Assembly: GCA_965178125.1 (NCBI GenBank)
Contig: OZ237741.1
Coordinates: 62,001 to 126,000 of the forward strand
Reading direction: 5' to 3'
DNA length: 64,000 nt
Origin: Bilabrum cf. latius
Lineage: Eukaryota
In this document: piece by piece, positions 1-64,000 of the stretch
How positions within the stretch are numbered: the first letter of the stretch is position 1
Layout of the letters: the number at the start of each line of letters is the position of its first letter
Notes under the pieces: generated by a model
Databases searched by the model: none
Told to the model about the DNA's origin: nothing
What the model saw: the letters and a program-made list of their open reading frames with translations, nothing else
Translations under genes and position numbers: made by a program

Positions 1-1078
1 TTGGCCTCCGCCAGAAGCCCGCAGCGGACAGCGGCAGCCGCACCCGCGAGCCGAGCCGCCTGCTGCTGCCCCGGAGTGAGCCTGCCCTGCAGCTTGCTGG
101 AAGCCAGCAGCCGCGCCTGCCGCACCCCAGCCGCAGCCGCCCTAGAGGGCAGGACCGCCCCGAAGTGCGCGGCCCTGGCCCTGGCCAAAGAGGCCAGCCC
201 AGGGAGGGAGGCGTCCACGGGCCTCGAGGCCTCGACCTTCTTGAGCATGTCCCGGGCGGCCTCGGCGTATCTGGCCCGGGCCAGCAGCACCCCACGCAGC
301 AGCCTGGGGAGGGCCAGGCTGCCCTCCACAGTCTTGGGGGCGCTGCCCTTGGCGGCGAGGACAGAGGCGCGGAGGGTGGCGGCCGAGTGGGCCAGGCGGG
401 CCGCAGCCCGGGGGTCGCGGTCGGCCACGGCGCATGCGCCCGCGTAGGCCGCGTCCCAGTGCTTGGACTGCTCCTCGTCTGCCACCGCCGGAAGGGAGGC
501 GGTGTCGGCGCCCTTGCCGGCGCACACGAGGGATGCGGACGCGTTGATCTCAATGAGCCTTTCCTGCTCTTCGGAACCTTTCACGATGGCCGCGTATCGA
601 TCGGCAGCTTCCCTGAACTGCCCGGAGCGGTACAGCGACTGGGCCACGAGGCGGCTCGGGGCTCCGGTCGGTGACTGGTCCTCCGCAGCACCGGCAGCTT
701 CGATGGCCTCGTCGGACTTACCCAGCTTGTACAACGAGTAGCCTCGCTCAAACTGCAGCGGGACGCCCGCCTTCTCGGCTGCCTGGCAGGCCGAGACAGC
801 CTCCTGGAATTTCCCCAGCCCAATCAGAACATCAACCTTCGTCGTATGCACGTCCGCATCGGCCGCGTACTTTGCAGTAGCAAGGACTACGAGATAAGCT
901 CAAGAGAAGCACGGAATACTATAAAACAGTTGGCCCCGATTGCCCTGCATTGCCCAGCAACACCGGCGCCCACGCTCGGGTCCATCTTACGCTAGTTACA
1001 CACAGCGACCGCCCCATCATCATCATTGTCATCAAGACATTGCACCAATTGCTTCAGATCTTCTTCTACTTCAGCCAT
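1..1078 (-). CDS. SRP72: Signal recognition particle subunit SRP72 (TPR), 5' portion; runs off the window start
   Basis: ATG at 1078; exon 1 MAEVEEDLKQLVQCLDDNDDDGAVAVCN[TAG]; GTAAG...TAG intron 887-990; then FERGYSLYKLG, LVAQSLYRSG, WDAAYAGACAV, resembling the SRP72 TPR region. Confidence 0.75.
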
Positions 1079-1204
1079 GCTCTCAGCAGCGCAGAAACCA
1101 GTGCATCAATCGACGAGTGTGAATTTATTCATGAAGTAACGTGCTATTTATCATGTTGCCGCGAAGCGGGACGTGAAGCACCCTAGCACCTGTATAATAA
1201 TAAA
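1079..1204. promoter_or_regulatory. Putative bidirectional promoter (SRP72/CS)
   Basis: 126 bp between divergent ATGs; AT-rich tataataataaa next to the CS start. Confidence 0.5.
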
Positions 1205-3150
1205 ATGTTGGCCCGCTTTGCCCGCAGTGCGACCAAGGTGAGTTAAGTTATCGCGTGGTTGTGTTGATTGTCGTCTGTGTTGCCCCGGACTGCCCAGCCA
1301 GCAGGTGGTGCGAAGCGTACCACTGTGATCAATGCGGGCATTGCTGCACGACTGGCAGGTCGGAAGCCTTTAATGTACCCATGCTATGCACTACTACTAT
1401 AATGCTTATTGACTGGCGGGTATGCGCACTCAGTACATGCTGTTCACAGTTCATTTGCCGGGAGGCGTGGCCAGCACACGTCACGTTGTGCACTGGGTCC
1501 GACCTCCCCGCTGGCATGTCGCGTGCGCTGTAACACGCCCTATAGCCAGCCAAAAATGCCTCGTTCGTGTACGTTCAAGAATTTACCTTCGCAGACGATC
1601 CGCCCTATGGCCTCTATGGCCGGTTCCCGCAGGTTTATGTCTGCGCGATCCGTGAGATCCAGGCTGCAAGTGTTCTTGCGACCCACCGTCTCGCGTTATT
1701 GTCCCTACTGGTATTGTCACTGTTTACTACTAGATTGCTCCGCTGGCGCTGCCACGGCACTGGACTCCATGACGGCTCTCCCCAGCAAATTCGTTCGTGA
1801 CTGCCTGTGTTGACCCGCTTGCTCGCCACTTTCGTCTCGCAGGCCCTGACGGAGCGCCTGCACGAGCTGGTTCCCGTGAAGCAGACCGAGCTCAAGGAGA
1901 TGATGGCTGAGCACGGCGACAAGAGCCTGGGTGAGGTGACCGTGCAGCAGGCAGTGGGCGGCGCCCGCGGCATCAAGTGCATGCTGTGGGAGACCTCCCT
2001 CCTGGACGCCGACGAGGGCATCCGCTTCAGGGGACACTCCATCCCGGAGCTGCAGGAGAAGCTCCCCACCGCCGTGGAGGGCGGCGAGCCCCAGCCCGAG
2101 GGCCTCCTCTGGCTGCTGCTCACTGGCGAGCTGCCCACGAACGAGGACGTGGCCAACCTGACCGCGGAGCTGCACAGCCGGGCGGCGCTGACCGAGGAGG
2201 AGGAGAAGTTCATCACCTCGTTGCCCTCGGACATGCACCCCATGACTGCCCTGTCCACCTCGGTGCTGGCCCTGCAGCCCAAGTCCAAGTTCGCCAAGGC
2301 TTACGCTGACGGCGCCCACAAGAGCGAGTACTGGAAGCACACCCTCGAGGACGTGCTCGACCTGACCGCCAAGCTGCCCCGTGTGGCTTCGCTCATCTAC
2401 CGCACCAAGTACCACGACGGTCGCTGCGCCAAGCCCGACACCTCCCTGGACTACTCTGCCAACTTCTCCCGCATGCTCGGGTTCACGGACCCCAAGTTCG
2501 ACGAGCTCATGAGGCTCTACCTGACCATCCACTCGGACCATGAGGGCGGCAACGTGTCTGCGCACGCCACCCACCTCGTGGGCTCTGCGCTGTCGGACCC
2601 CTACCTGTCTTTCTCTGCAGGCATGAACGGTCTGGCGGGGCCCCTGCACGGGCTGGCCAACCAGGAGGTGCTGCAGTGGGTGCTCGAGCTGCAAGCCGAG
2701 TTCGACAGGAGGGGCATCGATGTAACCCATGAGACCATCAAGGAGTTCGCGTGGGAGACGCTCAAGGGAGGCAAGGTCATCCCCGGGTACGGGCATGCAG
2801 TGCTCCGCAAGACGGACCCCAGGTATTCGTCCCAGCGAGAGTTCGCGCTCAAGCACCTGGGCGAGGACCCGCTCTTCAAGATCGTGTCTACCATCTACGA
2901 GGTGGTGCCCGATGTGCTCCTCGAGCACGGCAAGGCCAAGAACCCCTGGCCGAATGTCGATGCTCACTCTGGCGTGCTGCTGACCCACTACGGCCTGGAC
3001 CAGCACAACTACTACACGGTGCTGTTCGGCGTGTCCAGGGCCATGGGCGTGCTGTCGCAGCTCTTCTGGGACCGCGCCCTCGGTATGCCCATCGAGAGGC
3101 CCAAGTCCATTACCAGCGAGTGGATCAAGGGACAGTTCGGCAGCAAGTGA
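1205..3150 (+). CDS. CS: Mitochondrial citrate synthase (3 exons)
   Basis: Exons 1205-1237 and 1595-1651 encode a transit peptide ([30 protein letters not shown]); exon 3 is 1843-3150; motifs [45 protein letters not shown] stop; no TAG used. Confidence 0.97.
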
Positions 3151-3421
3151 TAGCGCTTGATTGAATGAGTTATTGGATAGGGGCAGGGACGCAGACTTGA
3201 ACAGTATTGGCGAGACTCGATAACCGAAACCATGCGACTCTCATCCAATCTTTTTTCACGGAATATTAAATGTCCTTGGAGACATTGCTCAGTATCACGC
3301 TGCGATTTCGGGAGGGGTTGGATTGACCATCGCTGAGCACACGAGAATCGCTGCAACACATGGTCGCACATGGCAGAACGCGAATCGCACAAATAATAAT
3401 TCCATAGGCAGCTCAAATCAA

Positions 3422-4573
3422 TCACGAACTACCTGCACCTCCCGAGGCTGCTCCCCCGCTCTTCGGCTTGTCGGCAGCTGCTACCTTCTTCGCAAACGGA
3501 TCTGATGTCTTGGCCCTGTTGAGCACCTGCTGAAACCCCTTCAACCTGTGCCTCATTCTTACCTGCAAGTACGTCTTGGCGCTCTTCATGTGATACAGCA
3601 AGAAAGCGCGGAACTGGCTCAGGCGGCACACGGCCCGGTCCAGCTTGCTGTCGTCGTCGATGTGCGTCGGAAACAGGGTGACGCTCATGAAGCCAGTCCC
3701 CTCCGGAAGGTGCTCCACGGCCGTCCCCTCCAGCTCCTTGGGCACTCCAGTGCCTGGCTCCGTGAAGAGGTAGGCCGGAGACCCCGGGAGCTTGTCCACC
3801 ACGGCCACCAGCTCCTGCGCGATGACGCGCGCCATGGCCCGGTCCATGCGGTCCTCGAACCGAAGCTGGTAGATGACGGTGCAGCGACTTTTGCCCGGGA
3901 CGATCCAGAGCACCTCCCCTGTGGCGGGGCGATCCGCAATGCGCCTCGGCTTGCTTGCCTTGCCTTCCCTCAGCTCCAGCAGCGCCTGGCGGATGGGGGC
4001 ACCCATGATGACCTATCTCGCCTTTGCGAGCGATTTAGCCAAGACCGCTGGTTTCTCTGGCAGCACTGTAGGATCGCCACATGGGATGGCCAGTGTCACA
4101 TCGGCAGTCTCGTAATTGCGAGCCTGCACCAAATCCCCGTACGCTGCCTTGAGCGCGTCGTCCAGCCCGTATGGTCGCAGCTAGTCAATGCATGGAACGT
4201 GGATGCAGAAATAGAGGGTACCTAGATTCTCTGGGTTGACAAGTAGTCTATACTATACTGCGAACACGAAGACGGAGATGACAAGCGGGAGGCGTACGTT
4301 GAACGTGCTCGGCTGGGTCGCATCCGTGCACCCAAAGCCAACGCTGTTGAGAGTCTCACTTCCGTCAAAATCACCTGCCTTGATATCAAGTGGGCGCTCA
4401 ACTAGAGGTCCGCTCAGTCGTTCCAAGAAAGCTGATCGCAGGATCGGTGAGTACTCGTCCAGCTGAATCATGGGTGGCATTCTGATCTTTGACTTGCGGT
4501 CGACCATCGAGGAGGTGCTCATCCCGGTACCATCTAATTCCTCTGCTGCCTTAGCTCCACCGATTGCCGCCAT
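3422..4573 (-). CDS. ARPC2: Arp2/3 complex subunit 2 (p34-Arc)
   Basis: GDFDG, intron 4258-4359, FRAFLLYHMKSAKTYLQVRMR...VLNRAK; 3 in-frame TAG; TGA stop; start ATG at 4573 or 4522. Confidence 0.88.
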
Positions 4574-4680
4574 AGGAACCCAGGATGCAATCGTTACGAC
4601 GAGATCATAGAAATCCGAGTTAATCAAACCATCACCGTACAATTGCATCTTGAATAATTGGAAACCCAACTATTGGCAAA

Positions 4681-7619
4681 ATGCCGTCCAAAAAAGGTGC
4701 TGCATCCAGCGGGAAAGGAGAACAAGTGAAAGCGCGTAATCCAGCCGAGTTCTTCGCGGAAAACCAAAACATCGCTGGCTTTGACAATGTATGAGGATGC
4801 CCAGTTGCAGTTGCTTCGCTTTGACAACGTGCGCCATGGTCCCAATTGCCAATAACGCTGGACTCCATTCGGCATCAATCCGCAGCCTGGAAAATCACTG
4901 TACACCACAATTCGAGAACTTGTAGAGAATGCATTGGATGTAAGTACTTTGGTGCGGCATCAGCGATAGCGAGACGAATGTGAGCGAACTGCAAGCTAAG
5001 AAGAGCGCTCATGTAGAATCTTTCATGGCACCGCAGGCGGCAGAGTCAGTGGAGAGACTTCCTAGAATTATTGTAGAGATCGAAGAGTTTTCAAGCCACC
5101 GGTTTGCGGAATCGAGGCCCAGACTGGCTGCTGGAACATTTGTTGGTGCATTCGATTCGCCGATCGGGCTTGCCACAGCAGGTCGGAAGAGAGAGAGAAA
5201 CGGCAGCCTTGGAACCGAGCCCGGTGCAGCAGAGTCTGATACCGCCTCACTGTCCTCCCAAGGGCAGTCAAAGCGGCCCCGTTCCACTGCGACGCCGGCC
5301 GCTGGTGAGATTCCCCTCACTGCTCGCACCCCAACCGCCCTGCTGACCGTGCCCGCGGCTTCTCAGTCCTCCAATGGGTCGAGCAGTGGGAAGGGTGGCA
5401 AGACTTCTTCGTCTTCTTCCTCCTCCAGTGCCGCCAGATCCACCCCCTCAGGCTCGCACCTATACTCGGTGCGGTGTACGGACAACGGGTGCGGCATGCC
5501 CCACGACCGAGTGCCGGACATGCTGGGCCGCGTGTTGTCGGGGTCTAAGTACGGGGTCCGGTAGACCAGGGGCAAGTTCGGGCTGGGCGCCAAGATGGCG
5601 CTGATATGGGCCAAGAAGAGCACGGGGCTGCCCATCGAGGTCACAACGGCACATGCACCCACCCCTGCACTGGCGGCTGGGGCACCCCCAGCCCGACTAA
5701 CAGAGTGCCGCCTGGACATTGACGTGTTCCGCAACGAGCCTCGTATCCTGAGGCACGAGTCCAAGCCGAATCGGGGCGGGTTCCGAGGCACGTCTCTGCG
5801 CGTGGTGGTGGGCGGCAGCTGGGCCACCTACCGCTCCAGGGTCATGCAGTACATGCAGCAGCTGGCCGTGATCACGCCATACGCGGAGCTCGAGCTGAGG
5901 TTTGCTGCCCCGGAGGCGGCCCGCAGGTCGTTTCACTACCGCTGGCGGCGCCGCTCCGTGGCCATGCCGCCTCGCGCCCTGGAGATCAGACACCACCCCT
6001 GCAGCGTGGACAACCTCAAGGTCAGGCAGCTCATCGCTGCTGCCACCGACAGGCACAGGGCCAGCAGGGGCGAGCCTGCAGGTACCGCTGCGTCGAATGC
6101 GTCGGGGGCATCAGGGGCATCAGGGGCGGGGGGCAGCAGCCCCAAGCTGCGGGCCTTCCTGCGGGAGTGGTTCTGGGGGGTGAGTGCGGGCGCATCCAAG
6201 CAGCTGGCCGAAGGGCTCGTGAAGAAGTTTCCAGGATTGATGGGGGGCAAGGGGAAGGCCAAAGCTAAGGGACGGGCCAAGGGAAAGGCAGGAGGCGATG
6301 AAGCATCATCCGCCCGCGCCAAGGTGGCTGACTGCCCCGTGGGCTCTCTGGGCGGCGAGCACGTGCACTTCCTGACGCAGGCACTGCACCGCGTGGATGC
6401 ACCGGCGCCCGATGGGAGCTGTCTCAGCCCCGCGGGTGAGTACAACTTGAGGCTGGGCATCCTCAAGGAACTGGCTCCTGACCTGCTGGCCACATTCGCG
6501 GGCCCCGCCTCCGTGTGCGAGGGGCATCCCTTCGTGGTGGAGGCGGGTGTGGCGCTCGGTGGCCGCGCCGCGCAAGAAGGGGTGACGGTGCATCGGTTCG
6601 CGAACAGGATCCCGCTCTTGTTCGAGGGGGGCGCGGATGTGTGCACGCGCACTGCACTGCAGCGCATCCCGTGGGCCTAGTACAAGATCGATCCTCGCAA
6701 GGACAAGGTGGGCGTGTTCGTGTCAATCGTAAGCACGCGCATCCCATTCAAGGGCACAGGCAAGGAGTACGTAGGGGACGATGTGGTGCCCATCCGGAAG
6801 GCGGTCCGACAGGCGCTCATGGGATGCGCCGCTCAGCTCCGCGCGAAGCTGGCCCGTCGCAAGGCGCTCAAGGAGGCCCAGGACCGGGCCAGGGCGCTGA
6901 GGAGGTACGTGCCTGACGTGGCCAGAGCCGTGGCGGGTGCCCTGCAGCAGGCGCTGGCCCGGAGGGAGCAGGCCAGGGAACAAAACGGTGAGGGGGCCCA
7001 TGGGTCTGGAAGCAGCAGTGCGGCAGCAGTAGCTGGAAACGGCAAGGGCAAAGGCAAGGGCAAAGGCAGGGACAAGGGCATGGGGGAGGAGAAGGGCCTC
7101 GCAGCGGTGCTCAAGGGCAGACCGGGGGAGGCCACGGACCCGCTGGCAGCAGTGATCGGGTGCCCGCTGTCCTGGAGATCTGCGGGGGAGAGACGCGAGG
7201 CCGTATTGCGGGCTGCAGGGGCGGGGCAGGTGGATACGAGCCGGCTACAGGGCGAGCTGGAGGCGGCGGTGAAGCGGGCCGATCAGGAGGCTGCGCTGGA
7301 CGCGGCGCTGGACGGAGTGGAGCACGGGGCGTCGATGGTGCGGGCTCAGGCTGGGGGACAGGGCCGGGGTGGCAAGGGTAAAGGAGGTGGCAAGGGCAAA
7401 GAGAAGGGCAAGGGGCCCTCGTATACGCCTTTGCCTCTGGCTGTGGCGATGGGTTCCCCGCATTCTGCCAGCTCCTCCGGGGCGGGTGCTGGTGCCGCGC
7501 CGGAGGAGCGCAAGTTGTGGATCCCGGGGGCGGCTGAGCTGCTGCTAGGCGCGTAGGGTGGGGGGACCAGCGCGGGGGCAGGGCGTTTTGCGCTGCTTGG
7601 GACTGCCGTGGTGACGTGA
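4681..7619 (+). CDS. TOP6B: DNA topoisomerase VI subunit B (GHKL ATPase), plant/algal type
   Basis: Exons 4681-4788, 4886-4939, 5037-7619; [40 protein letters not shown], KYGVR[TAG]TRGKFGLGAKMAL, LSPAGEYNL, RFANRIPLLFEGG; TAG at 5562, 6678, 7554; TGA 7617-7619. Confidence 0.95.
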
Positions 7620-7775
7620 ACCTGGAACCGATGACGAGCGGACCCACCGATGGACTCTGTTTGTTCGGTTTGTGATCACCTCGCTGGCAGATTTATCTCA
7701 GGAGCAAAGACTACATATACAGTTCCCAGCTGGTTTAATTCTTGTACAGGGCGTGGTTGATTCGAAGCCAGCTGG

Positions 7776-11430: not shown

Positions 11431-13028
<1,598 letters not shown>

Positions 13029-13202
13029 TTGGTTTTGTTTTTTGAGACAATTTCGTCGCGATTCGCCTCAAGCAAGCTGCAAGCAGATGCGGAGGCCACC
13101 TTCACGGAATGCATCGCACTGCCACGCTGCGCCGGCCACTGGCACCGGCAATGTGCCGGCCCAGCTGTCCGGTGCCTATCCGACTGCGCCTGTATCCGCT
13201 GC

Positions 13203-14843
13203 ATGGCGGCTCAATCAAGCAGTTCCACTGATGTGGTTCGATAGGCGGCGCTACATGCCGTGAATGAAGAGTTTGCTGCTGCTCTAGATGTGCTCGGTGA
13301 AGCGCAAGGGCTGGATGAGGACCGAATCCGTGCATCAGTTCTGCTGCAAATGGATCGCGCAGATGAGGCCCTTGATGTGTGCAACCGAATAATAGAGCAG
13401 AGTTCCGACTCGCTGAAGGCGATTGATTTCATCAGGAGAGGGTAAGAACGACACTCCTGGGCCACGTGGAGAATCCGACCAGAATTCAATCTTTGTGTGA
13501 CCACTAGCTCTCAGTGCAACCGCACCTGTAGGTGAACTCGTGTAATTGTTTTGATCCCACGCAGGGCCGCTCTCTTTGCCCTCGATGAATTCGAAGAGGC
13601 CCGGACATCGATGCAGCGAGCAACCGCGAAAGGAGCTAAAGGACGCACAACGCGTATCGAAATGCAGGCCAAAGCCTGGATTGGGCGATGCGATGCAGAG
13701 TTAGAGTTGGAGGCTAACGATGGCGCTGAGCCCGAGCTCCTTGAACCAGAGGGTCGCCCAGAGCCGACCAAACAAGCCGCCGCCCCGGCGGCTCCAGTCG
13801 TCGTAGCTGCACCTGCACCTGCACCTGCACCTACACCTGCTCCGGTCCGTTCAGCCGTGAATCCCGTTGTCTAGCAGAGCGCTGCCCCGTCCACGGCTAC
13901 CTCGAGCGCCGCAGCCGCCTCGCTGCCCCCCGCCGCCGCTCCCGCGCCCCAGATCGAGTCCGAGCAGGACCCTGCCCCCGCCATGCCCGTGCCCTACGGA
14001 TACGTGGGCAAGCGGATCTTCGAGTGGGACGAGACGCCGACTCACGTGAACCTGACTGTGCTGGCCAAGCAGACAGACCCCTCCAAGAGCAGGGTGTAGG
14101 TGCAGGACGTGAGGGCCAGGGCGTGCGAGGACAGCGTGTCAGGCAAGCCGCTGAGCACGCTGCTGGGGGTCTGCTCGCAGCTGCAGGTGCACCTGTGGCG
14201 CCCGGAGGAAGAGGGGGGTCCTCTCAACATGGTGCTTCCACTGCGGGGGCGGGTGCAGGGAGGCAGCAGCGTGCGCGTGTCGCACCGTCGCATGGCGGTG
14301 GAGGTTGGGCTGGTCAAGGACACGCCTGGGCTGGATTGGGGGGAGCTGCAGCAGCCCAAGGAGGAGGAGGAGGAGGAGGATGAGATGGCCGGCGAGGGGA
14401 AAGGCGAGGACAGCAGTGCTGCGTCGGGGGCGGGGGCGGGGACGGGAGTGACAGAGGCGATGGGGGTCGATGGCGAGGACGACGACAGGGAGGGGGGGGC
14501 TGAGCGAGGGGGCGGGGAGGACGAGGAGGAGGATGACGAAGAGGGGGCAGGCGCGGGTGCCGGTGCCAAGCAGGCGAAGAAGAAGACGATCGCTCCCCGC
14601 ACGTATGACGAGTGGGAGGCGCTGGCCGAGGAGGCCGAGTAGGAGGAGAAGAGCGCCAAGCCCGAGGGAGATGAGGCGCTCATGCACCTCTTCAGGGACA
14701 TTTACGCGAGGTCGGATGAAGCAACCAGGCGCGCGATGAACAAGTCTTACCAACAGAGCAACGGGCTGTGCCTCAGCACCAACTGGAAGGACGTGGCTAA
14801 GAAAGACTTCGAGGACGAGAAAAAGAAGTACGGCAAGGGGTGA
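13203..14843 (+). CDS. SGT1: SGT1 co-chaperone (TPR-CS-SGS)
   Basis: Intron 13442-13564; CS-like [20 protein letters not shown] domain [14 protein letters not shown]...[20 protein letters not shown] lies after an in-frame TAG at 14640; TGA 14841-14843. Confidence 0.88.
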
Positions 14844-15180: not shown

Positions 15181-16661
15181 ATGGTTGACCCCCAGGGCCG
15201 CTATGCTGGCGATGATGCAGACGTAGTAGACTCTGACGACGTGTCTCGGTCCGGAATGTCCAGGTGAGTGAAGTATGGTTATAGTTTCAACATCATGTAG
15301 ACAGACTCTTGGCTGGATGTGCATGTGTAGGATCCACTAGCGTTTCAAGACATGGCGCACGCGAGGCCGAACTGCTTTGAACCTTCGAGGGTATTTCTCA
15401 CCATGCATGCGTGATCGGCAAGCTGATTTGATCCATTTCTTATGCAGCGATATGTCCGAGGAAGATTCAACGTGGACGTCGTGGTTCTGCTCGCTGCGTG
15501 GGCACGAGTTTTTTGTTGAGGTGCCCGAAGATTACATCTAGGACGAATTCAACCTGACTGGGCTGTCTTAGATTGTTCCATACTATGACTACGCCTTGGA
15601 CACGATTCTGGACTTGGACTCTGGTGCGGAGGACATGACCGAGGAGCAGCAAGAGCTGGTGGACAGCGCAGCTGAGTTCCTTTATGGCCTCATCCATGCC
15701 AGATACGTTATTACAAGCAGGGGTCTTCAGCAAGTGTTAGAAAAATACTAGGATTTTTCGTACGGCCGGTGCCATCGAGTGCACTGCGAGGGTCAGCCGA
15801 TGCTGCCTTGCGGCAGAAGCGACATCCCTCGCAAGAGCGGCGTGGTCCTCTACTGCCCGCGCTGCAGCGACGTGTACTACCCGAAGAGCAGGAGACACTC
15901 TAGTGAGAACACAATGCGACAACACATCCAAGTGTCCAGCCCTCCCTAACCCACCCCTCCCGCGCGCACCCCCCTCTTTCCCTCCTCCCCGCCTCCCCTC
16001 CTCCACCGCAGAGATCGACGGGGCCTACTTCGGAACCACTCTCCCGCACCTGCTCCTCATGACTTACCCGGAACTGGTCCCCGCCGCCCCGCAGGAAGCA
16101 TTCCGCCCGCGCGTGTTCGGGTTCAGGGTGCACTGCCCCGCCCCGGACGCCATCGAAGCGGCCTCCTCGGCGCTGGCGGCGGACGGGTCCGCGGTCAGGA
16201 GCCGCAGCCTGCGGTCGATGCTGGCCGTGCGGGAGCTGGTGGAGCGGGCGGCGAAGGCACGGGTGGAGGCGCTGGTGGACGGCCGGGTGCCTCACATCAC
16301 GGTGGAGGGAGGCGCGATGCCGGTCACGGTCTAGGGGGGCATTGACGTGGCGGGCGTGCTGGCTGCGGCTGCCAGGGGGGACGGGTGGCGCGGGGGCGCG
16401 GCGGGGCCCGAGGCCCCTGGAGATGCCGGTTAGGACGCGGGCCAGGCGCGAGGGGGCGGCGCGGGGAGGGCGTCGGATGGGACAGGGGCAGCGGGTACGG
16501 GTACGGGTGCAGGTGCGGGTGCGGGTGGTGAAGTGGGGGGCAACGGCATACCGGAGGGTACCAGCGCTGATGGGAAGAATATGGAGAACGTAGAAGAAGG
16601 GCTGGAGATAGGAGATGATGGTGGGGCCAAAGCAGACCCGGGGGCTGGCGTGAATGGGTGA
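15181..16661 (+). CDS. CSNK2B: Casein kinase II regulatory subunit beta with a Gly-rich C-terminal extension
   Basis: Introns 15264-15447 and 15903-16011; [22 protein letters not shown][TAG][17 protein letters not shown], Zn ribbon CHRVHC...[14 protein letters not shown]; 5 TAG; TGA stop. Confidence 0.95.
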
Positions 16662-16926: not shown

Positions 16927-18285
16927 TCACGCGGCAGGCACGGCGTGTTCCCCGAACACATCCTGTACGCCACCCCTCACCGCCTGCACCATGGTCTGCA
17001 CGTCCTCTTCTCCGATGGTCAAAGGGGGAGCCAGTCGGATGATGTCCCCGTGCGTTGGCTTGGCCAGCACCCCCCTCTCCTTCATGGCCAAGCACACCTC
17101 CCAGGCAGTGGGCGCGCCCTCCCCCTCCCCCGGCCGGATGACCACCGCATTCAGCAGCCCCTTGCCCCTGACCTCGACCACCTGCGAGCCCTCGCCCAGC
17201 AGAGAGGCAGACAGCTCGCTCCGCAGCAGATCGCCCATCCTAGCCGCGTTCTCCACCATACCCTCCTCCTGCAGCACTGCCAGCGCCTCCATGGCCACCG
17301 CGGCCCCCAGAGGGTTGCCCCCGTACGTGGACCCGTGCTGCCCCGGCCTCACCGCCAGCATCACCTCCGAGGAGGCCAGCATGGCGCTCACAGGGAACAC
17401 GCCTCCGCTGAGGGCCTTGCCCAGCACCAGCATATCCGGCCTCCAGTCGTCCGAGGGGTCCTCCTCATTCCTTTCGTAGTGGGAGGCGAGCCACTTGCCC
17501 GTCCGGCCGAGCCCCGTCTGCACCTCGTCCGCGATCAGCAGTGCGCCCCTCGAGTGCAGCAGCTCCTGGGCCCCGCGCAGGTATCCCTCGGGAGGGACCA
17601 CCACTCCGGCCTCGCCCTGGATGGGCTCTGCCATGAGGGCGATCACGTTCGGGTCCGCGTCCAGCGCCCGCTCCAGGTCCTCGAGGCAGCCGTACTCGAC
17701 CGTCGAAAAGCCGGGGGTGAACGGGCCGAAGCCCTTGCGCGACTCGGGGTCGGTGCTGCTCGACACGGCCGAGATGCTGCGGCCCCAGAAATTGTTGGCG
17801 GGGAACAAAATTGTGCCCTGGTTCTCTGGAACCCCGCGCACATCGTAACCCCAGCGACGCGCGAACTTGACGGCGCTCTCGCAGGCCTCCACGCCGCTGT
17901 TCATCAGGAGGGCCCGCTCATACCCAAACCCCTCGCATAGATCCCTCTCAAGCAGACCAAGCTGATCGTTATGAAATGCCCTGCTTGTCAGGGTCAGTCG
18001 ACTGGCCTATTCTTGCAACTTAGCGATAATTCTAGGATGGCAGTGCCCCTAGTTGACCGCCGAGAACGCAGAGAGACAATCCAGGTACTCCTTCCCTTCT
18101 ACATCCACCATCGTTTTACCCTTGGCATGTGAGACCACCACTGGAATTGGGCTGTAGTTCTCAGCGCCGTACTTACGCTCGAGATTCAAGCACTCCTGCG
18201 ACGAGCTCGCCTTCTACTTGCCAAACTTGTAGGACAGCTACCTCAAACCCAGACCAGCCCTTGGTCTCAGTGCTAGCCTATGCAT
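16927..18285 (-). CDS. OAT: Mitochondrial ornithine aminotransferase
   Basis: Intronless; YGAENYSP, SAFSAVN[TAG]GHCHP, LTLTSRAF, EPIQGEAG, ADEVQTGLGRTG, LGKALSGG, HGSTYGGNPL; 4 TAG in the first 127 codons; TGA stop. Confidence 0.96.
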
Positions 18286-18899
18286 GCATTGACGAACTCC
18301 AGCCATCGTACTTTCGCGTTGGTGCGGTAGAAATGTGTCGGAACAAAACGGAAATTCGCGCGCGTTCGCCACCGTTCCGAGCGAACCCAGGGCCGGGCGG
18401 AACGTGAACTGAGGCAGGATCGTGTGGGCAATAACCAGCGAGGCACTAGATGGGTTGGGGGGGCATTTATGGCGAACAGAGAGAGTGTTTGCGGGGTGGT
18501 GAGTGTTTCGTGGCTCGCGGAGAGTGAGGTGAGGGTGTGGGAGTGTGGGATCTTATTAGGGCCGGTGCAGTGGTGCTTGCCTCGCTGTATACGGTTGCGG
18601 ACGAAAGTCCACCGTCATGGTCATGCTGTCTTTGCACAGCACCCATTGTTCGGTTCTGCTTGACCTTAAATCAGATTTCAGATTTCAGAGGCTGGACTGG
18701 TATCAAGTGGCTCCGCTGACTTCGTAAGCTTGGATGGTACTATAACTATAGGCCCTACAGCGTGGTTAGACTCTCTGCGGACATAATCATATTTTCATCG
18801 TCAAGCATGTAGCACCAGCCCCCACTCACCGACACCATTTGCTCGGCCTTCGCAAGCACCGCTATAACCCCCGGCCGATGCCCCCATGCACGCACCCAC

Positions 18900-19709
18900 T
18901 CAGTCCTCGATGCCCCTGGCCTGGTTGATGTGGAAGATGCGCACCCCATGCATCTCGGGCAGCTTGGCCACGAGCAGGATGGCCACCTGCACGAAGCTGA
19001 ATGCGAGGTGCCACGTGTCGTACTTGGTCATGTGCGCCGTCACCATGAACCTGCGAGGTGATGCGGTGAACGGATCGCGCCGAGGAAGCGAAGGCCATGT
19101 GGCGGCTGAGCGATGCACGGGGGTCCACGGGCAGCAATCATGGAACACGTCCACTTTACCAGCGGCGGTTCGAGCTCTCACAGCACTACAGGAGCAATCA
19201 TGAGGAATTTCTTCGTGTCGGTCCACATGACGCCATTATCTATCTGCTCCCATACTGTCTTGTCAATCTTGTCGCCCTAGTCCTGCCACGCTGGCGAGCC
19301 GCGCTTCCAGTGCAAACCAGCAAACTAGATCTGCGAAAGGCGGATATGAGTGGCACTAAATCAGTACATGGATGCATGTGCTTGCCAACAAGCATTTGCC
19401 TCCAAAAAAAGGAGTTGCATCGCGTGCCTTCTGCTCCATCCGTGGAGTTCCATTTGCTGATACTGGGCGCCAAAACATCTGACGCTGACTCACGACAAAA
19501 TGAACAAAGTGAGTTAGGCTCCACTTCATTGGCACAGTGAGAACCTACTCCGGGACAAAAGCGTACAAGAGAAATCGGAAGAGTACCACAGCCAAGATGT
19601 AGAAAATCCAGGTTCCTGGCTGCCCAAAATACTCTACATTCTGGTCGAAGAGACTTTGTGTAGATAAAGCCGATCTTGAAATCGAACGTTTAATGCCTGC
19701 ACTAGACAT
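18900..19709 (-). CDS. ORMDL: ORM1-like (ORMDL) sphingolipid biosynthesis regulator, 3 exons
   Basis: GTWIFYI, LHWKRGSPAWQD[TAG]G...TVWEQIDNG..WTDTKKFL, KLPEMHGVRIF; two GT-AG introns; TGA stop. Confidence 0.92.
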
Positions 19710-42448: not shown

Positions 42449-45107
42449 TCACATGTGCCCCTCCAGCACCCCCTTCGCCCAGGCCTTTCTCACCAGCACG
42501 TGATACGCACCCATGGTGACCTTCCCCTTGTTCCCCAGCATCCCCCGCACCCCCTCCGGCATCCAGAATGCCCGACCGAGGGACGATGAGGACCCCGAGT
42601 CTAAGAAGGGCTAGGCCCCCGCGCTCACCCAGCCGCCGCCGCCGCAGCGCCCCTCTTCCAGCCAGCCAGGGCTGCTGAGATCAGTGTCCGACACATCCCC
42701 GCCGCAGCCCGCCCCAGCACCGCTCTTGCTGGCCTGCTCCACCTCGGACCACAGCCTCCCACCGAGCACAGCCTCACCTGCCGTTGTATTCGGGTCCAGC
42801 CCCAGCCCCTCCAGCACTCCCGGCCCCACAACTTCCTCGGGGAACAACTCACCCAGGGTCAGGCCGCGGAACCACGGCTCCAGGTCCCCCACCACTGGGC
42901 CGACCGCCCGCCCGTCCCCTTTCCCACCGCCCCCTCCCCTGCTCCAAGGCAGGGCATAGTCTACCAACACGTCGCACTCAGACAGCGCCACGAAGCGGCG
43001 TGTGCTCTCGGCGCGGTTGGCGTCGTTGAAGCCCGCCAGCGCAGCAGAGGCCCCGCCCGCGGATCGGCTGAAGGGCTGTGGCAACTGGCCCCCGAACCCA
43101 GACCGCAGGAAAGCGACCTCTGCGGGGCCCCCGGGGATGGCGCTCGAGCTGCGGGGCTGCGCCAGCACCTCTCCCGCCCCTCTTGCCCTTACCTCAGCCT
43201 GCCTCTACCTCTGACTCTGACTATCGTCTGCCTGTGCCCCGGCTGCGTTCCCCCCCGATGACCTCGTCACGTCCGGAAGCAGGAAGCTCGTCCCGAACCG
43301 GTACCACTCCTTCCCCACGCACACCACGGCGCCGTGAGGCCGATCCATCTGGAGCACCGTCTTCTCCTTCCCCTCTACCTCTCCCCCCTCCAGCGCAGCA
43401 CGCTCGTCAGCGAGGTGCCAGACCCCGAGGCCCCGCCCCAGGCCCCCGGCCCTATGTGCCCCCAGCAGCGCGTCGATGCTGCTGAGGCGAGGCCCGTTCG
43501 CCCCTGCCAGCGCCTCGGCACCTTCTTTGGAACCAGGCACCAGCAGCTGGTGCACCGTGCTCCACGCAGACCGAGGAGCACCGTAGTACCTGGTGAGCGC
43601 GAGCACCCGCGAAGCAGCCAGCAGCCCCTGCAACGCTGCGAACGCAAGCACTGCCACCAGTGCCACAGATGCCCCGGGGGTGTGCCCTGCCTGCCCCTTG
43701 CCTGGGGCAGAACTGCTTGGTACCTAGCCGTTTGAGGGGCCGCTCTGCTGCCCCGCCCCATCATCGCCCCCGCCCTTCTCGCCCTTGCCTGCCCGCTGCC
43801 TCAGTCCGCGCTCGCTGCTATCATGCCCATGCGTTCCTTCAGAGCCCTCCCTGTCCCTTGCATTACCCTTGCCTATGCTCGAATCAGTCCCGTCTGTCTT
43901 TTTGTCCTGCCCCAATCCAGCGGCCTGGCTGTGGCTGCCCCTGCAGCCCCCCATCACGCACTCCAGCAGCGCCCACCACTCGGCCAGCGAGACGCCCGCA
44001 GCGGCCGCCATCAGCGGATAGGCAGGGAACAGGAACCGCTCCTCTTTGTGCGCGCGAGCTGACATGAAGCCCAGCCACCCGAGCGCGGGCAGGACAAGCA
44101 TCCCCGCCCACACCAGCCTGTCTCCTCTCACGCCCTCCCTGATCGCCCCGGCTACCAGCGCAACGGGCGCCGCCAGCATCAGGGGTAGCCACAGGCCGAA
44201 GTTGAGCGCACCGTTGAGCAAGTACCACTCCGGCGGCTCCACTCCGTAGAGGTCGCTCCCCTGCCCCCCTCCTCCCACCCCAAGGGCGTTGTACAGGAAG
44301 ATGTTCAGCACGGCCACGAGCGGCTTGCCGTACATGAGCCAGTCCACCGCAACGCTGACAGCCACCAGAGCAGCAGCAGAAGCGACGCCCGCCCCGAGCA
44401 CGCTGAGAGTAGAGTGCCCTCCCAGGCCCAGCAGCATGTGCAGCCCCATGGGCACGAAGAGGAGGGCACAGAACGGCCAGCCCAGCAGCACGGCCACTGC
44501 GCCTGCCACGATCGAGGCGCCCGTCCGTCCACGGAGCCACTCCGCGTAGCTCCATGCCACGCAGTACATGCTGAAAGAAGAAGGAAGCAGCGCGCTGGAT
44601 GCATGGGTTGGGCCGGCTGCCAGCAGGAGGGCCAGCGCGGTGCCAGCGGCGTAGCGCCAGCCGAAGCGGTGGCGGATCGCAGAGACTAAAGCGGTGTCTG
44701 CAACCGTCGCGACCAGAGCAAGAACGATCTGCGTCAAACGCAGTCCTGCAACCTTACTCAAGCCAAGTAAGTTTGACGACAAGAAAGCAGGAATCTCATT
44801 TATTCCGATGTATAGCCAGGATCGGAACGCGTACGTCGGGCTGCGATGCAGGTATTGAGTGAAGATGTTCGCAAGCCTGTAGCACAGCAACAGCAAATAC
44901 ATTAAGTGGTTCGGAATTAAAGAATACTCACCTGTATTCCCATGTCTGATAGCCCCTGCCATGCAAACCGTAGTGAATCTGCTCCCAATAATTAAACTGT
45001 TCATCACAATCACTGAAGTGTAGGCCAGATAATGCTACCACCCTCCAGATAAACAATATTGCACCAATTATCTATGGGGGCGGTAAAATTACGGGTTGAT
45101 CGACCAT
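42449..45107 (-). CDS. ALG9: Alpha-1,2-mannosyltransferase ALG9 (GT22)
   Basis: SDCDEQFNYWE...QTWEYS/PTYAFRSW across one intron, HKEERFLFPAYP, VCVGKEWYRF, FGGQLP, PFLD...RAFWMP after a TAG; TGA at 42449. Confidence 0.93.
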
Positions 45108-52805: not shown

Positions 52806-55136
52806 ATGGCTCACACTCTTTCATGCCTCACCAGTATACAATCATTTGATCTACTGGAGTTTGACATTAATCGTACTACACAAATGTTGAGAGCTATTGT
52901 GCGAGGTGACAAGGAAGCCTTCATTGCTGCTCATGAAAGCGGCGTTGCAATACAGGGCGTTTTCGAAGAGGTAGTCGACGAGAACGGAAAGCGAATCGGC
53001 GAAAACCTACAAGCAGTGCACGTAATAGCAATGCTTGGACATACTGATTTGTTGGAATTCATTTTGGGCCACGTTGATCCGAACACGCAGTGCTGCAGTG
53101 GCAACACACCGATGGTGCTAGCCGCAAAGAATGGTCATGTTGAAGCAATCCGAATTCTCTTGTCATTACATGGTAATCCATCGCATGTAAATGAGCACGG
53201 GGAGACTCCGCTGTTCTGGGCCTGTGCCAATGGGCACGAGCAGGTGGCGGCCGCACTGCTGGAAGCGTGTCCGGACCTGGCTGTGATCAACAGGGCCAAC
53301 ACCAAGGCCGAGACGGCCCTGACACAGGCGATGGCCAAGCAGCATGCGGGCGTGGCTCGCCTGCTGGTGGATGCAGGGGCAGACGTGCAGCATCAGGGGG
53401 AGGGCGGGTACACCCCACTGCTGGTTGCTGCAGAGGTTGGCCACGTGGATCTGGTGCGCATGCTGCTGGAAGCCGATGCATCTGTGTGCGGTACGCCTAA
53501 CGAGCACGGGGAGACTCCGCTGTTCTGGGCCTGTGCCAATGGGCACGAGCAGGTGGCTGCCGCACTGCTGGAGGCGTGTCCGGACCTGGCTGTGATCAAC
53601 AGGGCCAACACCAAGGCCGAGACGGCCCTGACATAGGCGATGGCCAAGCAGCATGCGGGCGTGGCTCGCCTGCTGGTGGATGCAGGGGCAGACGTGCAGC
53701 ATCAGGGGGAGGGCGGGTACACCCCACTGCTGGTTGCTGCAGAGGTTGGCCACGTGGATCTGGTGCGCATGCTGCTGGAAGCCGATGCATCTGTGTGCGG
53801 TACGCCTAACGAGCACGGGGAGACTCCGCTGTTCTGGGCCTGTGCCAATGGGCACGAGCAGGTGGCGGCCGCACTGCTGGAAGCGTGTCCGGACCTGGCT
53901 GTGATCAACAGGGCCAACACCAAGGCCGAGACGGCCCTGACACAGGCGGTCTTCTCGCAGCATGTGGGCGTGGCTCGCCTGCTGGTGGATGCGGGGGCAG
54001 ATGTGCGGCATCAGGGGGAGGGCGGGTACACCCCACTGCTGGTTGCTGCAGAGGTTGGCCACGTGGATCTGGTGCGCATGCTGCTGGAAGCCGATGCATC
54101 TGTGTGCGGTACGCCTAACGAGCACGGGGAGACTCCGCTGTTCTGGGCCTGTGCCAATGGGCACGAGCAGGTGGCTGCCGCACTGCTGGAGGCGTGTCCG
54201 GACCTGGCTGTGATCAACAGGGCCAACACCAAGGCCGAGACGGCCCTGACATAGGCGATGGCCAAGCAACATGCGGGCGTGGCTCGCCTGCTGGTGGATG
54301 CAGGGGCAGACGTGCAGCATCAGGGGGAGGGCGGGTACACCCCACTGCTGGTTGCTGCAGAGGCTGGCCACGTGGATCTGGTGCGCATGCTGCTGGAAGC
54401 CGATGCATCTGTGTGCGGTACGCCTAACGAGCACGGGGAGACTCCGCTGTTCTGGGCCTGTGCCAATGGGCACGAGCAGGTGGCGGCCGCACTGCTGGAG
54501 GCGTGTCCGGACCTGGCTGTGATCAACAGGGCCAACACCAAGGCCGAGACGGCCCTGACACAGGCGGTCTTCTCGCAGCATGTGGGCGTGGCCCGCCTGC
54601 TGGTGGATGCAGGGGCAGACGTGCAGCATCAGGGGGAGGGCGGGTACACCCCACTGCTGGTTGCTGCAGAGGTTGGCCACGTGGATCTGGTGCGCATGCT
54701 GCTGGAAGCCGATGCATCTGTGTGCGGTACGCCTAACGAGCACGGGGAGACTCCGCTGTTCTGGGCCTGTGCCAATGGGCACGAGCAGGTGGCGGCCGCA
54801 CTGCTGGAAGCGTGTCCGGACCTGGCTGTGATCAACAGGGCCAACACCAAGGCCGAGACGGCCCTGACACAGGCGGTCTTCTCGCAGCATGCGGGCGTGG
54901 CTCGCCTGCTGGTAGATGCGGGGGCAGACGTGCGGCAAGCAGGACACGGAGGGTACACGCCGCTGATGGTTGCTGCGAAGGTGGGCAGTATGTACCTGGT
55001 GCGCATGCTGCTGGAAGCTGGGGTAGACCACAGGCACGCTGGCCAGCCACAGCTTGAGTTGCCTGTTGAGATTGCTGCGAGAATGGGACACGAGGATGTG
55101 GTCCAGATTCTCGAGCAGTGGCATCCGACTGCGTGA
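52806..55136 (+). CDS. Ankyrin-repeat protein built from near-identical 103-aa units
   Basis: GETPLFWACANGH and GYTPLLVAAEVGH motifs; three ORF fragments joined by TAG at 53634 and 54252; TGA stop; start approximate. Confidence 0.9.
53190..54935 (+). repeat. 309-bp tandem repeat, about 5.6 near-identical copies
   Basis: Equivalent codons at 53325, 53634, 53943, 54252, 54561, 54870 (period 309). Confidence 0.95.
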
Positions 55137-56987: not shown

Positions 56988-57800
<813 letters not shown>

Positions 57801-60602: not shown

Positions 60603-60780
60603 CCTTAGCCAGCAGAGGCACTGCAATCGAAACCATTTTCGGCCGAGTATGCATTGTTCAGTGCCAATTCTGGTAATCAATGAATGTTGCGTGCAAACAC
60701 TTGTAAAACCACACAAAAATCAACAGGGGGCTACAGTAGGCCCCGTAGCAGCACCTGGTCTTTCCCTCGACCATTTGACG

Positions 60781-62874: not shown

Positions 62875-63146
62875 CCGAGTAGGGGGGATGGCAGGCCGAC
62901 AAGAGGGTTGTCATGTGCAAGCAGTGGAGGCGGCCGTGGGCTGGTCCAACAGCTGATTTGGAATGCAGTGAATAGATACAGACAATTCCACGATAAATTG
63001 CCGAAGAATTGCTCCGACTCAGCACGCTCGACTGCACTTCGGTAGGCGGTTGCAACCTCGTTTTCACGACGGTTTGAGCACTATCGATAAATACTGCAAA
63101 GATTCGAAACTCTGGGACTGATAAGACCGCGCATCCCAGAAATCCG

Positions 63147-64000
63147 ATGTAGGGTATTTAGACACGACATCACGGTGAGTTTTCTGCAGCCCAAACCCTT
63201 GCTGTACCGGTGCTCTGGCGTTTCGAAATGAATGTCGCTCTACCTTTGTTCTGCATATCGCCGCCCGTTTGTTCGTTTCATGCTTGGTAAATTCGGCTGT
63301 CAAATGTATTGCTCTTTTAGAGGTTTTCCATCCCGTTGCAGAGCTGGAGGATGACATAGATGACCAGGACTTGAATCGTGATAGCGCCGAGTTTACATCG
63401 ACGGCAACAGATCATATTCTACACAATGGCACGGACGGAGTCAGCAGCAATGCGGACATTATTGATGTTCACATGGACAGTCTTATCCCCAAAGGGGTAA
63501 CACCACCCAGAGTAGCTCGGAGACGGCCGCCTGCGCAAGGGAGAGGCATTGAGAACGCCCCCCCAGCACGATTGGATGCAGCGCCAAGCATGCACGAGCG
63601 GCGAGCGAGAAAAGACGTGGGTCCCCGCCAGGCTCTGCGATCTCCAACGGGAGGATTGCGTGTTCCCTCCCTCGTGCCAGGCAAGGAGCGGCCCGGCGGG
63701 CGTCTCAGCATTGCGGACCTCGAGCGGAATCGTCACGAGGTGAGCAGGGACTTTTGTGTGCGCGCGTGCGCCGTTTGTCGGTCGCCCAGCAGATGGGCGC
63801 CACCCCAATTGAGCCTCTGGAGCGCCAAGCGCCTCCTGCCTCCACCGCAATGCACCTCGAAGCATGTCAACTCGCTACGTTCGCACTGCACTGCACTGCA
63901 CTGCACTGAACCCTCGCAGAGATCCGCGCACGCCGCCCAGCAGTCCAAGACGGAGACCGAGCACCGGAGGCAGCAGCGGGCCAGGGCCAGGGAACTGAGG
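63147..64000 (+). CDS. Hypothetical protein, 5' portion; runs off the window end
   Basis: ATG-TAG-GGT-ATT-TAG exon 63147-63174, GTGAGT donor, open frame to 63739, second intron 63740-63919, then RSAHAAQQSKTETEHRRQQR. Confidence 0.5.

Follow-up and report, generated by a model that had tools for sequence, protein, structure and literature searches.

The stretch of DNA analysed here (64,000 nucleotides, called the window) raises the question whether UAG is read as glutamine while UGA and UAA still terminate translation, as a sequence-only reading had proposed. UAG and UAA nearly always change their meaning together, and each uncoupled case tests how eRF1 and tRNA-Gln discriminate between the two. 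The window is very probably nuclear DNA of a compact, aerobic eukaryote of 62% GC that uses UAG as a glutamine sense codon, UGA as its main stop and probably UAA as a rare stop. The assignment of UAG to glutamine is supported by invariant glutamine columns, by the alternation of TAG and CAG in an ankyrin gene, by codon interchange with a syntenic relative (L001), by spliced RNA contigs and by TGA ends common to both species.

In-frame TAG codons in the window and in a syntenic relative

The gene content was confirmed with Pfam, and the main features are listed in Table 1. The genes are closely packed and their introns are short (100-185 nt, GT-AG). The suggestion of an aerobic host agrees with the presence of citrate synthase and of Coq4 and Coq10-like genes in the window. 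The contig carries many genes over a length of 64 kb or more.

Crude ORF models were bounded by TGA or TAA. The 24 models contained 83 in-frame TAG codons, with at least one in 22 of them. Introns and leaders contribute a minority of these, such as the TAG at 57237 in the predicted Rab18 intron, and further TAGs lie beyond the 24 models in ORMDL, RUVBL1 exon 2 and the ORF 15684-16661. The original estimate of about 100 TAGs in about 30 of 33 models was therefore of the right order of magnitude, but its exact figures were not reproduced. The six coordinates named individually (57330, 18049-18051, 15539, 11593, 5562 and 19277-19279) were all in-frame TAGs. Against 427 CAG and 108 CAA, the 83 TAGs made up about 13% of the glutamine codons in the 24 models.

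The absence of internal TAA and TGA, also claimed from the letters, was borne out in 4,506 codons aligned to Pfam or PDB entries, where 25 TAG, no TAA and no TGA occurred in frame. The other frames of these spans held 40 TAG, 31 TAA and 153 TGA, so that chance is a very unlikely source of the TAG-only pattern. The length of ORFs by itself is no evidence, as dropping TGA as a stop yields even more ORF than dropping TAG. With the standard code, the 2,712-codon WD40/EF-hand ORF falls apart, and no piece exceeds 954 codons.

For three genes, conserved domains at the C-terminus had been proposed to lie downstream of TAGs, and this was confirmed in all three. In SGT1, with TAG at codons 88, 163 and 344, the Pfam SGS domain covers residues 334-402. 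A single Pfam DUF92 alignment spans residues 28-377 of TMEM19 (profile 2-250 of 251) and includes both TAGs, at 278 and 322. In ALG9, TAG 427 and TAG 600 have conserved blocks downstream of them. Of 150 homologues, 101 matched the block at about 555-580 and about 124 the block at about 630-690.

The relative L001 is syntenic with the window from 2394 to 17700 at 66-83% nucleotide identity and has 37 in-frame TAGs in 10 orthologous ORFs. Compared with L001, the genes are under purifying selection. Since the trait is common to at least one diverged syntenic relative, it is a property of a clade and not of a single strain.

Table 1. Coordinates of the genes and exons discussed in the text
Feature	Position	Strand	Exons and introns	In-frame TAG	End	Remarks
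Citrate synthase (control gene)	1900..3150	+		none	TGA, common with the L001 ortholog	Pfam Citrate_synt, E=2e-98
ARPC2 (p34-Arc)	3422..4837	-	intron 4258-4359	first bases 4255, 4183, 4015 (and 4672 upstream)	TGA	Pfam P34-Arc, E=5e-38
Topoisomerase VI subunit B (TOP6B)	5025..7619	+		5562-5564, 6678-6680, 7554-7556	TGA	Pfam and PDB matches
RUVBL1	11563..13031	+	exon 2 11563-11695, exon 3 11800-13031	11593-11595, 11653-11655	TGA	Pfam TIP49, E=1e-140
SGT1-like gene (SGS domain)	13611..14843	+		13872, 14097, 14640	TGA	Pfam SGS
Casein kinase II beta (CK2beta) exon	15445..15902	+	upstream intron 15261-15444	15539-15541, 15569-15571, 15749-15751		
Ornithine aminotransferase (OAT)	16927..18306	-	single exon over the RNA-covered part	18238-18240, 18214-18216, 18049-18051, 18007-18009	TGA	Pfam Aminotran_3, E=2e-104
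ORMDL middle exon	19180..19330	-		19277-19279; second TAG at exon codon 2		
TMEM19/DUF92 membrane protein	22093..23286	+		22924-22926, 23056-23058	TGA	
WD40/EF-hand ORF (2,712 codons)	32280..40418	+		16	TAA	
ALG9-like mannosyltransferase	42449..45004	-		43724-43726, 43205-43207, 42611-42613	TGA	Pfam Glyco_transf_22
Ankyrin-repeat gene	52806..55136	+		53634-53636, 54252-54254		six near-identical 103-codon units; Pfam Ank_2, E=2e-143
Rab18-like GTPase	56988..57800	+	predicted intron 57205-57327 (GT..AG, 123 nt, sites from sequence)	exonic: 57150, 57165, 57330-57332, 57432	TGA after a C-terminal CC	

Termination at TGA and probably at TAA

UGA is well supported as a stop codon. The 24 models ended 21 times in TGA and three times in TAA, and one of the three TAAs (CK2beta) sits in an intron, so that two window ORFs have a credible TAA end. 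Nine pairs of orthologs from the window and L001 were compared; 7 had TGA as the stop in both members, and matching TGA ends were found for citrate synthase, ARPC2, TOP6B, a GH18-like gene, RUVBL1 and SGT1.

A true TAG stop cannot be revealed by ORF-based models, because these read on to the next TGA or TAA. Codes in which the same codon is stop or sense depending on its context are known from Condylostoma, karyorelicts and Blastocrithidia, and UAG could here likewise be sense inside genes and stop near some 3' ends. Several TAGs do lie within the last 20-115 codons (TOP6B 844/864, ALG9 798/851, an ion channel 745/797, the giant ORF 2598/2712), and the standard-code gene call of the TOP6B homologue P0241 stops exactly at the position of TAG 844. 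The 20 codons that follow TAG 844, however, are conserved with L001 in length and in part of their sequence up to the common TGA, and L001 has a serine codon at 844. Similarly, the L001 SGT1 gene has a TAG of its own 13 codons before the common TGA, within the conserved SGS tail. At ALG9 798, an ORF fragment of a relative with about 90% identity reads a sense codon, TGG, and the identity continues beyond it. The nine genes whose C-terminus is anchored by homology all have a TGA end, in a scope of 64 kb from which rare UAG stops could escape. A dual UAG is therefore unlikely, though it is the alternative that we take most seriously.

The role of UAA as a stop is moderately supported. In the 4,506 homology-backed codons no in-frame TAA was found, whereas the CAA:CAG ratio predicts 3.8 (P = 0.02). 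Besides the two TAA-ended ORFs of the window, one L001 ortholog ends in TAA; the C-termini of these three ORFs have no independent anchor. If both UAA and UAG encoded glutamine (NCBI table 6 type), TAA could be too rare to be seen at 62% GC. It is indeed the rarest stop triplet over all six frames (416, against 874 TAG and 1,562 TGA), few credible ORFs end with it, and reassignment of both codons together is described as the usual pattern (PMC5304391, PMC11687900). Nevertheless, the 24 ORFs should then contain about 21 in-frame TAAs, and long ones like that of 2,712 codons are unbroken. The open segments that are joined when TAA is read through match no known gene frame, except for the CK2beta intron and 5' leaders. 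This makes a joint reassignment improbable, and UAG as the only reassigned stop codon is the preferred reading.

Amino acid identity and UAG in spliced RNA

All six TAGs at glutamine-conserved columns paired with glutamine, three of the columns coming from large alignments and three from the PDB alignments shown. At OAT X86 and X100, where X denotes the TAG codon, glutamine was present in 118 of 118 homologues each, and at TOP6B X180 in 120 of 120. CK2beta X89 faced glutamine in all three PDB sequences shown, Rab18 X115 paired with the catalytic glutamine of the DTAGQE switch II motif (E=4e-52 to PDB Rab18), and ORMDL X18 paired with a glutamine of the ORMDL family protein in PDB 7yjk. The proposal that TAG sits at conserved glutamine sites thus held for OAT, TOP6B, CK2beta, Rab18 and ORMDL. 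It was weaker for the RUVBL1 motif T-Q-RI, where the column of X11 is mixed in 57 homologues (A 28, Q 25, S 3, one gap) and therefore not an invariant glutamine. In the ankyrin gene, the codon at one position of the six near-identical units was CAG, TAG, CAG, TAG, CAG and CAG.

The comparison with L001 gave the same picture at the level of codons. The 23 window TAG codons compared faced TAG in 6, CAG in 5 and CAA in 2 cases, and the 33 L001 TAG codons faced TAG in 6, CAG in 6 and CAA in 1 case in the window. As a control, 122 window CAG or CAA codons were compared; these faced CAG 46 times, CAA 15 times and TAG 7 times. A glutamine codon in the ortholog is therefore faced equally often by TAG (13/23) and by CAG or CAA (68/122).

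At variable columns TAG also faced other residues. These were S/E/E at CK2beta X99, K/R at Rab18 X55 and D at X60, E at ARPC2 X219 and N at X275 in PDB homologues, and H in Rae1. CK2beta X160 faced K/Q/Q. TOP6B X552 is mostly S, N or T in homologues and Q in the closest relative, P0241. Such positions are compatible with glutamine and are no demonstration of it. Taken by themselves, the E, K, S, N, D, H and R residues at variable columns and the tryptophan codon of the relative at ALG9 798 could point to another amino acid (Glu, Lys, Tyr, Leu, Ser, Trp or pyrrolysine), and UAG read as leucine or as serine is described for other eukaryotes (PMC11687900). With glutamine at all six conserved columns, the exchange of TAG and CAG among the ankyrin repeats and the equal pairing in orthologs, a residue other than glutamine is very unlikely.

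The presence of UAG in mRNA was confirmed with Logan contigs of two runs that belong to two studies; these are contigs and not raw reads, with rare variants dropped. Of these runs, one bears the flag 'probably DNA' yet contains spliced joints. Contigs spliced at GT..AG kept the TAGs of ARPC2, RUVBL1, OAT, CK2beta and SGT1 with no other letter at any of them. For ARPC2, spliced contigs of two runs bridged 4257/4360 and retained three TAGs; for RUVBL1, the joints 11442/11563 and 11695/11800 were present in contigs of two runs. CK2beta had the joint 15260/15445, with a contig spanning 15445-15902. RNA-type contigs covered OAT (16423-18151 and 16817-18291) and SGT1 (13564-14405 and 14440-14829). 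In ORMDL, the CT..AC joints 19048/19180 and 19330/19494 were observed in two runs. The listed contig differences were confined to 18454-18656, outside these five genes. Since the spliced contigs keep the TAGs without base differences, editing and assembly error are excluded at the level of contigs.

The standard code, with the TAGs as assembly or sequencing errors, pseudogenes, sites of U-to-C editing or missed introns, had nothing positive in its favour and was the default to exclude; it has next to no chance, given DNA-type contigs of run X1 that match the window over the genes with no other letters, TAGs kept in spliced contigs of two studies and lying inside exons with observed joints on both sides, an interrupting codon that was TAG in all 25 cases although TGA outnumbers TAG about fourfold out of frame, and the purifying selection against the relative.

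Known code variants, mechanism and lineage

The codon table found here is that of Iotanema spirale (Fornicata), for which UAG as glutamine with UAA and UGA as stops is described (PMC5304391). In both, UAG occurs in frame at conserved glutamine positions and UAA and UGA do not. Iotanema is, however, an anaerobic metamonad with UAA as its main stop, whereas the window has 62% GC, an aerobic gene set, TGA as the main stop (21/24) and a lineage that looks stramenopile. For Iotanema, the same report gives a predicted tRNA-Gln(CUA), no other anticodon being able to read UAG without also reading UAA, and an eRF1 whose GTS motif carries the change T32G (PMC5304391). Among the ciliates, Protocruzia tuzeti and two phyllopharyngean lineages are reported to have reassigned only UAG to glutamine (PMC11687900). 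The change is shared with these ciliates and has arisen independently more than once. The window is not from a ciliate; it is a GC-rich multigene contig with GT-AG introns of 100-185 nt and a TOP6B that groups among stramenopiles.

NCBI translation table 15 ('Blepharisma'; TAG as glutamine, TAA and TGA as stops) translates the window correctly. Its number is a convenience that implies no lineage, and its attribution to Blepharisma is an error according to PMC5304391. The window represents a new lineage with an already known rare code variant, and a literature search found no published report of UAG as glutamine in this lineage.

Both UAA and UAG encode glutamine (table 6 type) in many ciliates, hexamitids, ulvophytes, Streblomastix and Amoeboaphelidium protococcarum. 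These codes and the present one have in common that a stop codon was captured for glutamine, presumably via mutated tRNA-Gln genes, and differ in TAA, which has no in-frame use here against an expectation of 3.8. Amoeboaphelidium was excluded as the source of the DNA, as Table 1 of PMC10608142 gives genomes of about 40% GC, against 62% here.

In the mechanism that we propose, UAG would be decoded by a tRNA-Gln(CUA), which is one mutation away from tRNA-Gln(CUG) and would pair with UAG and not with UAA, and the recognition of UAG by eRF1 would be weakened. GC pressure may have made TGA dominant and TAG stops rare, and the capture of the TAG codon would then have been cheaper. No tRNA genes were found in the 64-kb window, L001 or L064, and eRF1 is not encoded within the window.

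The named matches of TOP6B were nearly all stramenopiles, the best being Cafeteria roenbergensis, and those of OAT and RUVBL1 were of mixed taxonomy. In the TOP6B tree, a tree of one gene with flagged composition bias, the query and P0241 were placed on a long branch in a 14-row clade with Cafeteria (SH-aLRT 99), far from fornicates and ciliates. Based on this single, compositionally biased tree, the lineage is probably a stramenopile. The position far from fornicates and ciliates also makes the independent reassignment of UAG, as put forward in the sequence-only reading, plausible. We give an even chance to a more specific scenario: an independent, clade-wide change of UAG to glutamine in an unsampled GC-rich, aerobic, heterotrophic stramenopile near the bicosoecids, captured under GC and not AT pressure and the first in stramenopiles. 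If true, stramenopiles would have their first case of a reassigned nuclear stop codon, and GC pressure instead of the classic AT pressure would have opened codon capture, via TGA-dominated termination and abundant tRNA-Gln(CUG).

A GC-rich, aerobic, non-ciliate lineage with a diverged relative and public spliced transcripts would allow the change to be dated. The same clade, of which public data show three or more related taxa, would help to find the eRF1 substitutions involved and to test the capture of codons under GC pressure. When this assembly and metagenome bins of its relatives are annotated, TAG needs to be translated as glutamine. Standard-code gene callers have fragmented the proteins of this clade in the databases, where OAT is represented by 304 of 459 residues (P0002), TOP6B by 675 of 864 (P0241) and the L001 TOP6B by a fragment of 137 residues (P0361).

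TAG codons in the gene models

The window has a GC content of 62% throughout and is densely packed with eukaryotic genes on both strands. When the long ORFs were read with TAG as glutamine, matches to Pfam families were obtained for citrate synthase, ARPC2, topoisomerase VI-B (TOP6B), RUVBL1, SGT1, casein kinase II beta (CK2beta), ornithine aminotransferase (OAT), an ion-transport protein, TMEM19/DUF92, Coq4, a Rae1/Bub3-like WD40 protein, a WD40/EF-hand protein of 2,712 codons, ALG9, Coq10-like, ankyrin-repeat and TPR proteins and a Rab18-like GTPase, with a weak GH18-like match. The citrate synthase, Coq4 and Coq10-like genes fit an aerobic mitochondrion.

In 24 ORF models bounded by TGA or TAA, 83 TAG, 427 CAG and 108 CAA codons were found in frame, and 22 models contained at least one TAG. 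The models ended with TGA in 21 cases and with TAA in three, one of which, in CK2beta, is an intronic TAA. The length of an ORF alone is no proof of a code change in GC-rich DNA, where TGA as a sense codon opens more ORF than TAG does, and the test therefore had to rest on homology. GC3 was unreliable for recognising coding frames because the antisense frames of genes are GC3-rich as well. A six-frame comparison with the syntenic contig of a relative, with all stops as X, was also uninformative, since the underlying DNA is homologous and the alignments ran through UTRs, introns and non-coding frames.

When the count was limited to the codons with a Pfam or PDB alignment (4,506 in all), 25 TAG but no TAA or TGA were in frame, and the same spans held 40 TAG, 31 TAA and 153 TGA out of frame. 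Random damage or frame errors would be expected to yield mostly TGA, unlike this TAG-only pattern. The sequence-only reading had proposed that UAG encodes glutamine while UGA and UAA remain stops, and all six of the sites it quoted are in-frame TAG codons.

Residues at the TAG sites and their retention in transcripts

To keep the searches from favouring glutamine, each TAG codon was translated as X. Wherever the column is conserved as glutamine, the TAG was aligned with it. The claim that TAG occupies conserved glutamine sites was thereby upheld for OAT, TOP6B, CK2beta, Rab18 and ORMDL, but not for RUVBL1, where the column is mixed. Most of the variable columns hold polar or charged residues, one is mainly alanine and one mainly hydrophobic; by alignment they are compatible with glutamine and do not demonstrate it. 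An internal control was provided by the ankyrin gene, in which one position reads CAG, TAG, CAG, TAG, CAG and CAG in the six repeat units.

Positions of TAG codons and other features (X with a number, codon position of an in-frame TAG; other positions are window coordinates)
Feature	Position	Observation
OAT	X86, X100	Q in 118/118 homologues each
TOP6B	X180	Q in 120/120 homologues
TOP6B	X552	S 55, N 24, T 17, Q 6 and others (n=120); Q in closest relative
CK2beta	X89	Q in 3/3 alignments shown
CK2beta	X99; X160	S/E/E; K/Q/Q
Rab18	X115	aligned with Gln of the DTAGQE switch II motif
Rab18	X55; X60; X149	K/R; D; N/Q
Rab18	57330-57332	TAG in frame given predicted intron 57205-57327 (GT..AG, phase 1)
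ORMDL	X18	aligned with Q
ARPC2	X219; X275	E; N
Rae1	X116	H
RUVBL1	X11	A 28, Q 25, S 3, gap 1 (n=57)
ALG9 codon 798	42611-42613	TAG
Ankyrin gene	52806-55136 (+)	six near-identical tandem units of 103 codons (309 bp); TAG/CAG alleles spread among units
Spliced joints (runs X5/X6)	4257/4360, 11442/11563, 11695/11800, 13440/13564, 15260/15445, 19048/19180, 19330/19494	
Long ORFs with TAG	23330-25414 (-), 7776-10349 (+), 58274-59497 (+), 60508-62874 (+)	no Pfam family
Regions in otherwise gene-dense contig	25500-28700, 46500-47700, 49100-50100	no Pfam-backed ORF or clear coding frame
Region between OAT and ORMDL	18400-18700	contigs of all runs break; variants cluster (18454-18656); summed depth up to 623 in run X1

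Conserved C-terminal domains had been said to lie beyond TAG codons, and this was found for all three proteins named. In SGT1 the SGS domain (334-402) follows TAG 88 and 163 and itself contains TAG 344; in TMEM19 a single DUF92 alignment crosses both TAGs. A search of SGT1 against PDB gave no matches. ALG9 continues beyond TAG 427 and TAG 600 with blocks at about 555-580 and 630-690; among the best 150 homologues, 101 match the first block and about 124 the second.

The near identity of the ankyrin units points to concerted evolution or to an amplification in recent times. The three regions lacking a clear coding frame may be non-coding or may contain genes that are rich in introns or specific to the lineage.

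For four public runs, Logan contigs rather than raw reads were compared with the window over 3400-23399. Run X1 gave an unspliced DNA match with no other letters across the genes. None of the listed runs is recorded as RNA; nonetheless, contigs of X5 and X6, two runs from separate studies that are filed under other organism labels, skip GT..AG (or CT..AC) intervals and derive from spliced mRNA. Five TAG codons lie in contigs spanning the ARPC2 and RUVBL1 joints and the TAGs of OAT, CK2beta and SGT1 are covered by further contigs, in every case with no other letters. As far as contigs allow, which lose rare variants and, for X5, are flagged as probably containing DNA, this excludes U-to-C editing, errors of assembly and hidden introns. 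At the contig level, UAG was thus retained in mRNA in two runs from two studies. The only listed differences between runs and window fall in the repeat at 18454-18656, and the surrounding region probably represents a dispersed repeat or an element of low complexity.

Comparison with relatives

The syntenic metagenome contig (L001) corresponds to window 2394-17700 with a nucleotide identity of 66-83%; at the protein level RUVBL1 is 97% identical and TOP6B about 65%. Ten orthologous ORFs of L001 contain 37 in-frame TAGs. The window TAGs (n=23) were aligned to TAG 6, CAG 5 and CAA 2 times in L001, and the L001 TAGs (n=33) to TAG 6, CAG 6 and CAA 1 times in the window. For a control, ordinary glutamine codons of the window (n=122) were aligned to CAG 46, CAA 15 and TAG 7 times. 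The share aligned to any of the three codons was therefore the same for window TAGs (57%) and ordinary glutamine codons (56%), and lower for L001 TAGs (39%, 13/33). The reassignment is common to both and thus a trait of the clade.

Matching TGA ends were found in both species for citrate synthase, ARPC2, TOP6B, GH18-like, RUVBL1 and SGT1. The TOP6B tail can be aligned with L001 for about 20 codons beyond window TAG 844, where L001 has a serine codon, and L001 SGT1 carries a TAG 13 codons upstream of the stop common to both species; judging from these alignments, these late TAGs are probably read through and do not serve as stops.

Of a closer relative, the protein database shows nothing but gene fragments called with the standard code: an OAT entry (P0002; 98% identical, 304/459 residues) and a TOP6B entry (P0241; 90% identical in the best local alignment, 675/864 residues) with Q at 180 and 552. 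Another entry (P0361) is a 137-residue piece of the TOP6B of L001. Gene callers that apply the standard code have cut the genes of this clade at TAG, and fragments are all that public protein collections contain of them. At ALG9 codon 798 one such fragment from a relative, itself approximately 90% identical, has Trp, a one-base TAG/TGG difference and a single non-synonymous change at an unconserved site. The ORF at 7776-10349 is only 37% identical to its L001 ortholog, and its product is therefore taken as a fast-evolving, lineage-specific protein.

The observation of the sequence-only reading was thus confirmed, and its interpretation is supported by homology, the RNA contigs and the comparison with L001: UAG is very probably a sense codon for glutamine, with UGA as the main stop.

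Termination, decoding and placement of the lineage

If UAA were also glutamine (UAR = Gln), 3.8 in-frame TAA would be expected from the CAA:CAG ratio in the homology-backed spans, where none was seen (P=0.02), and about 21 over the 24 ORFs, where again none was seen. Except in the CK2beta intron and 5' leaders, no TAA was found to link coding segments of any known gene. TAA terminates two ORFs of the window and one ortholog in L001. The missing in-frame TAAs and the TAA-ended ORFs make UAA a likely stop, with moderate support.

Our results show the outcome of decoding, and the machinery is what we infer. A CUA anticodon is described as the only way to read UAG yet ignore UAA (PMC5304391). A tRNA-Gln(CUA) would be one mutation away from tRNA-Gln(CUG), the reader of the dominant glutamine codon here, and eRF1 would have to lose its affinity for UAG; T32G in the GTS motif has been proposed as the eRF1 change in Iotanema (PMC5304391). 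In a GC-rich genome with TGA-dominated termination, few UAG stops would be left to read through. A tRNA scan and an Rfam scan gave no tRNA genes and no RNA-family matches in the window, L001 and L064, a near copy of part of L001.

A reassignment of UAG alone to glutamine has been described for Iotanema spirale, for Protocruzia tuzeti and for two lineages of phyllopharyngean ciliates (PMC11687900, PMC5304391). The attribution of translation table 15 to 'Blepharisma' was an error (PMC5304391). No report of UAG as glutamine in a stramenopile or a GC-rich non-ciliate was found in full-text literature searches, and one may exist in subscription journals or supplements, which lay outside this scope. 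The code table is already known, while the lineage and the genomic setting appear to be new. Amoeboaphelidium, a parasite of algae with a non-canonical code, was ruled out as the source by its GC content of about 40% (PMC10608142, Table 1) and its published code, UAR = Gln.

Beyond the near relatives, the best named matches of OAT and RUVBL1 were taxonomically mixed, with at most 60% and 78% identity, respectively. TOP6B was more telling: its named matches were nearly all stramenopiles, with Cafeteria roenbergensis as the best. In a tree of 37 TOP6B sequences, the window and P0241 were placed on a long branch within a clade of 14 rows (SH-aLRT 99) that also includes Cafeteria and unnamed metagenome sequences; the diatoms, the brown algae, one oomycete and one plant fell outside it. 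Composition bias was flagged for precisely these GC-rich rows, and the stramenopile placement is therefore provisional.

Eight runs (X1-X8) with four coded organism labels from four studies contained at least 64% of the sampled words of the stretch, and in two of them there are spliced transcripts that match the window exactly. The organism may be a contaminant of other organisms that were sequenced, or may have been grown together with them.
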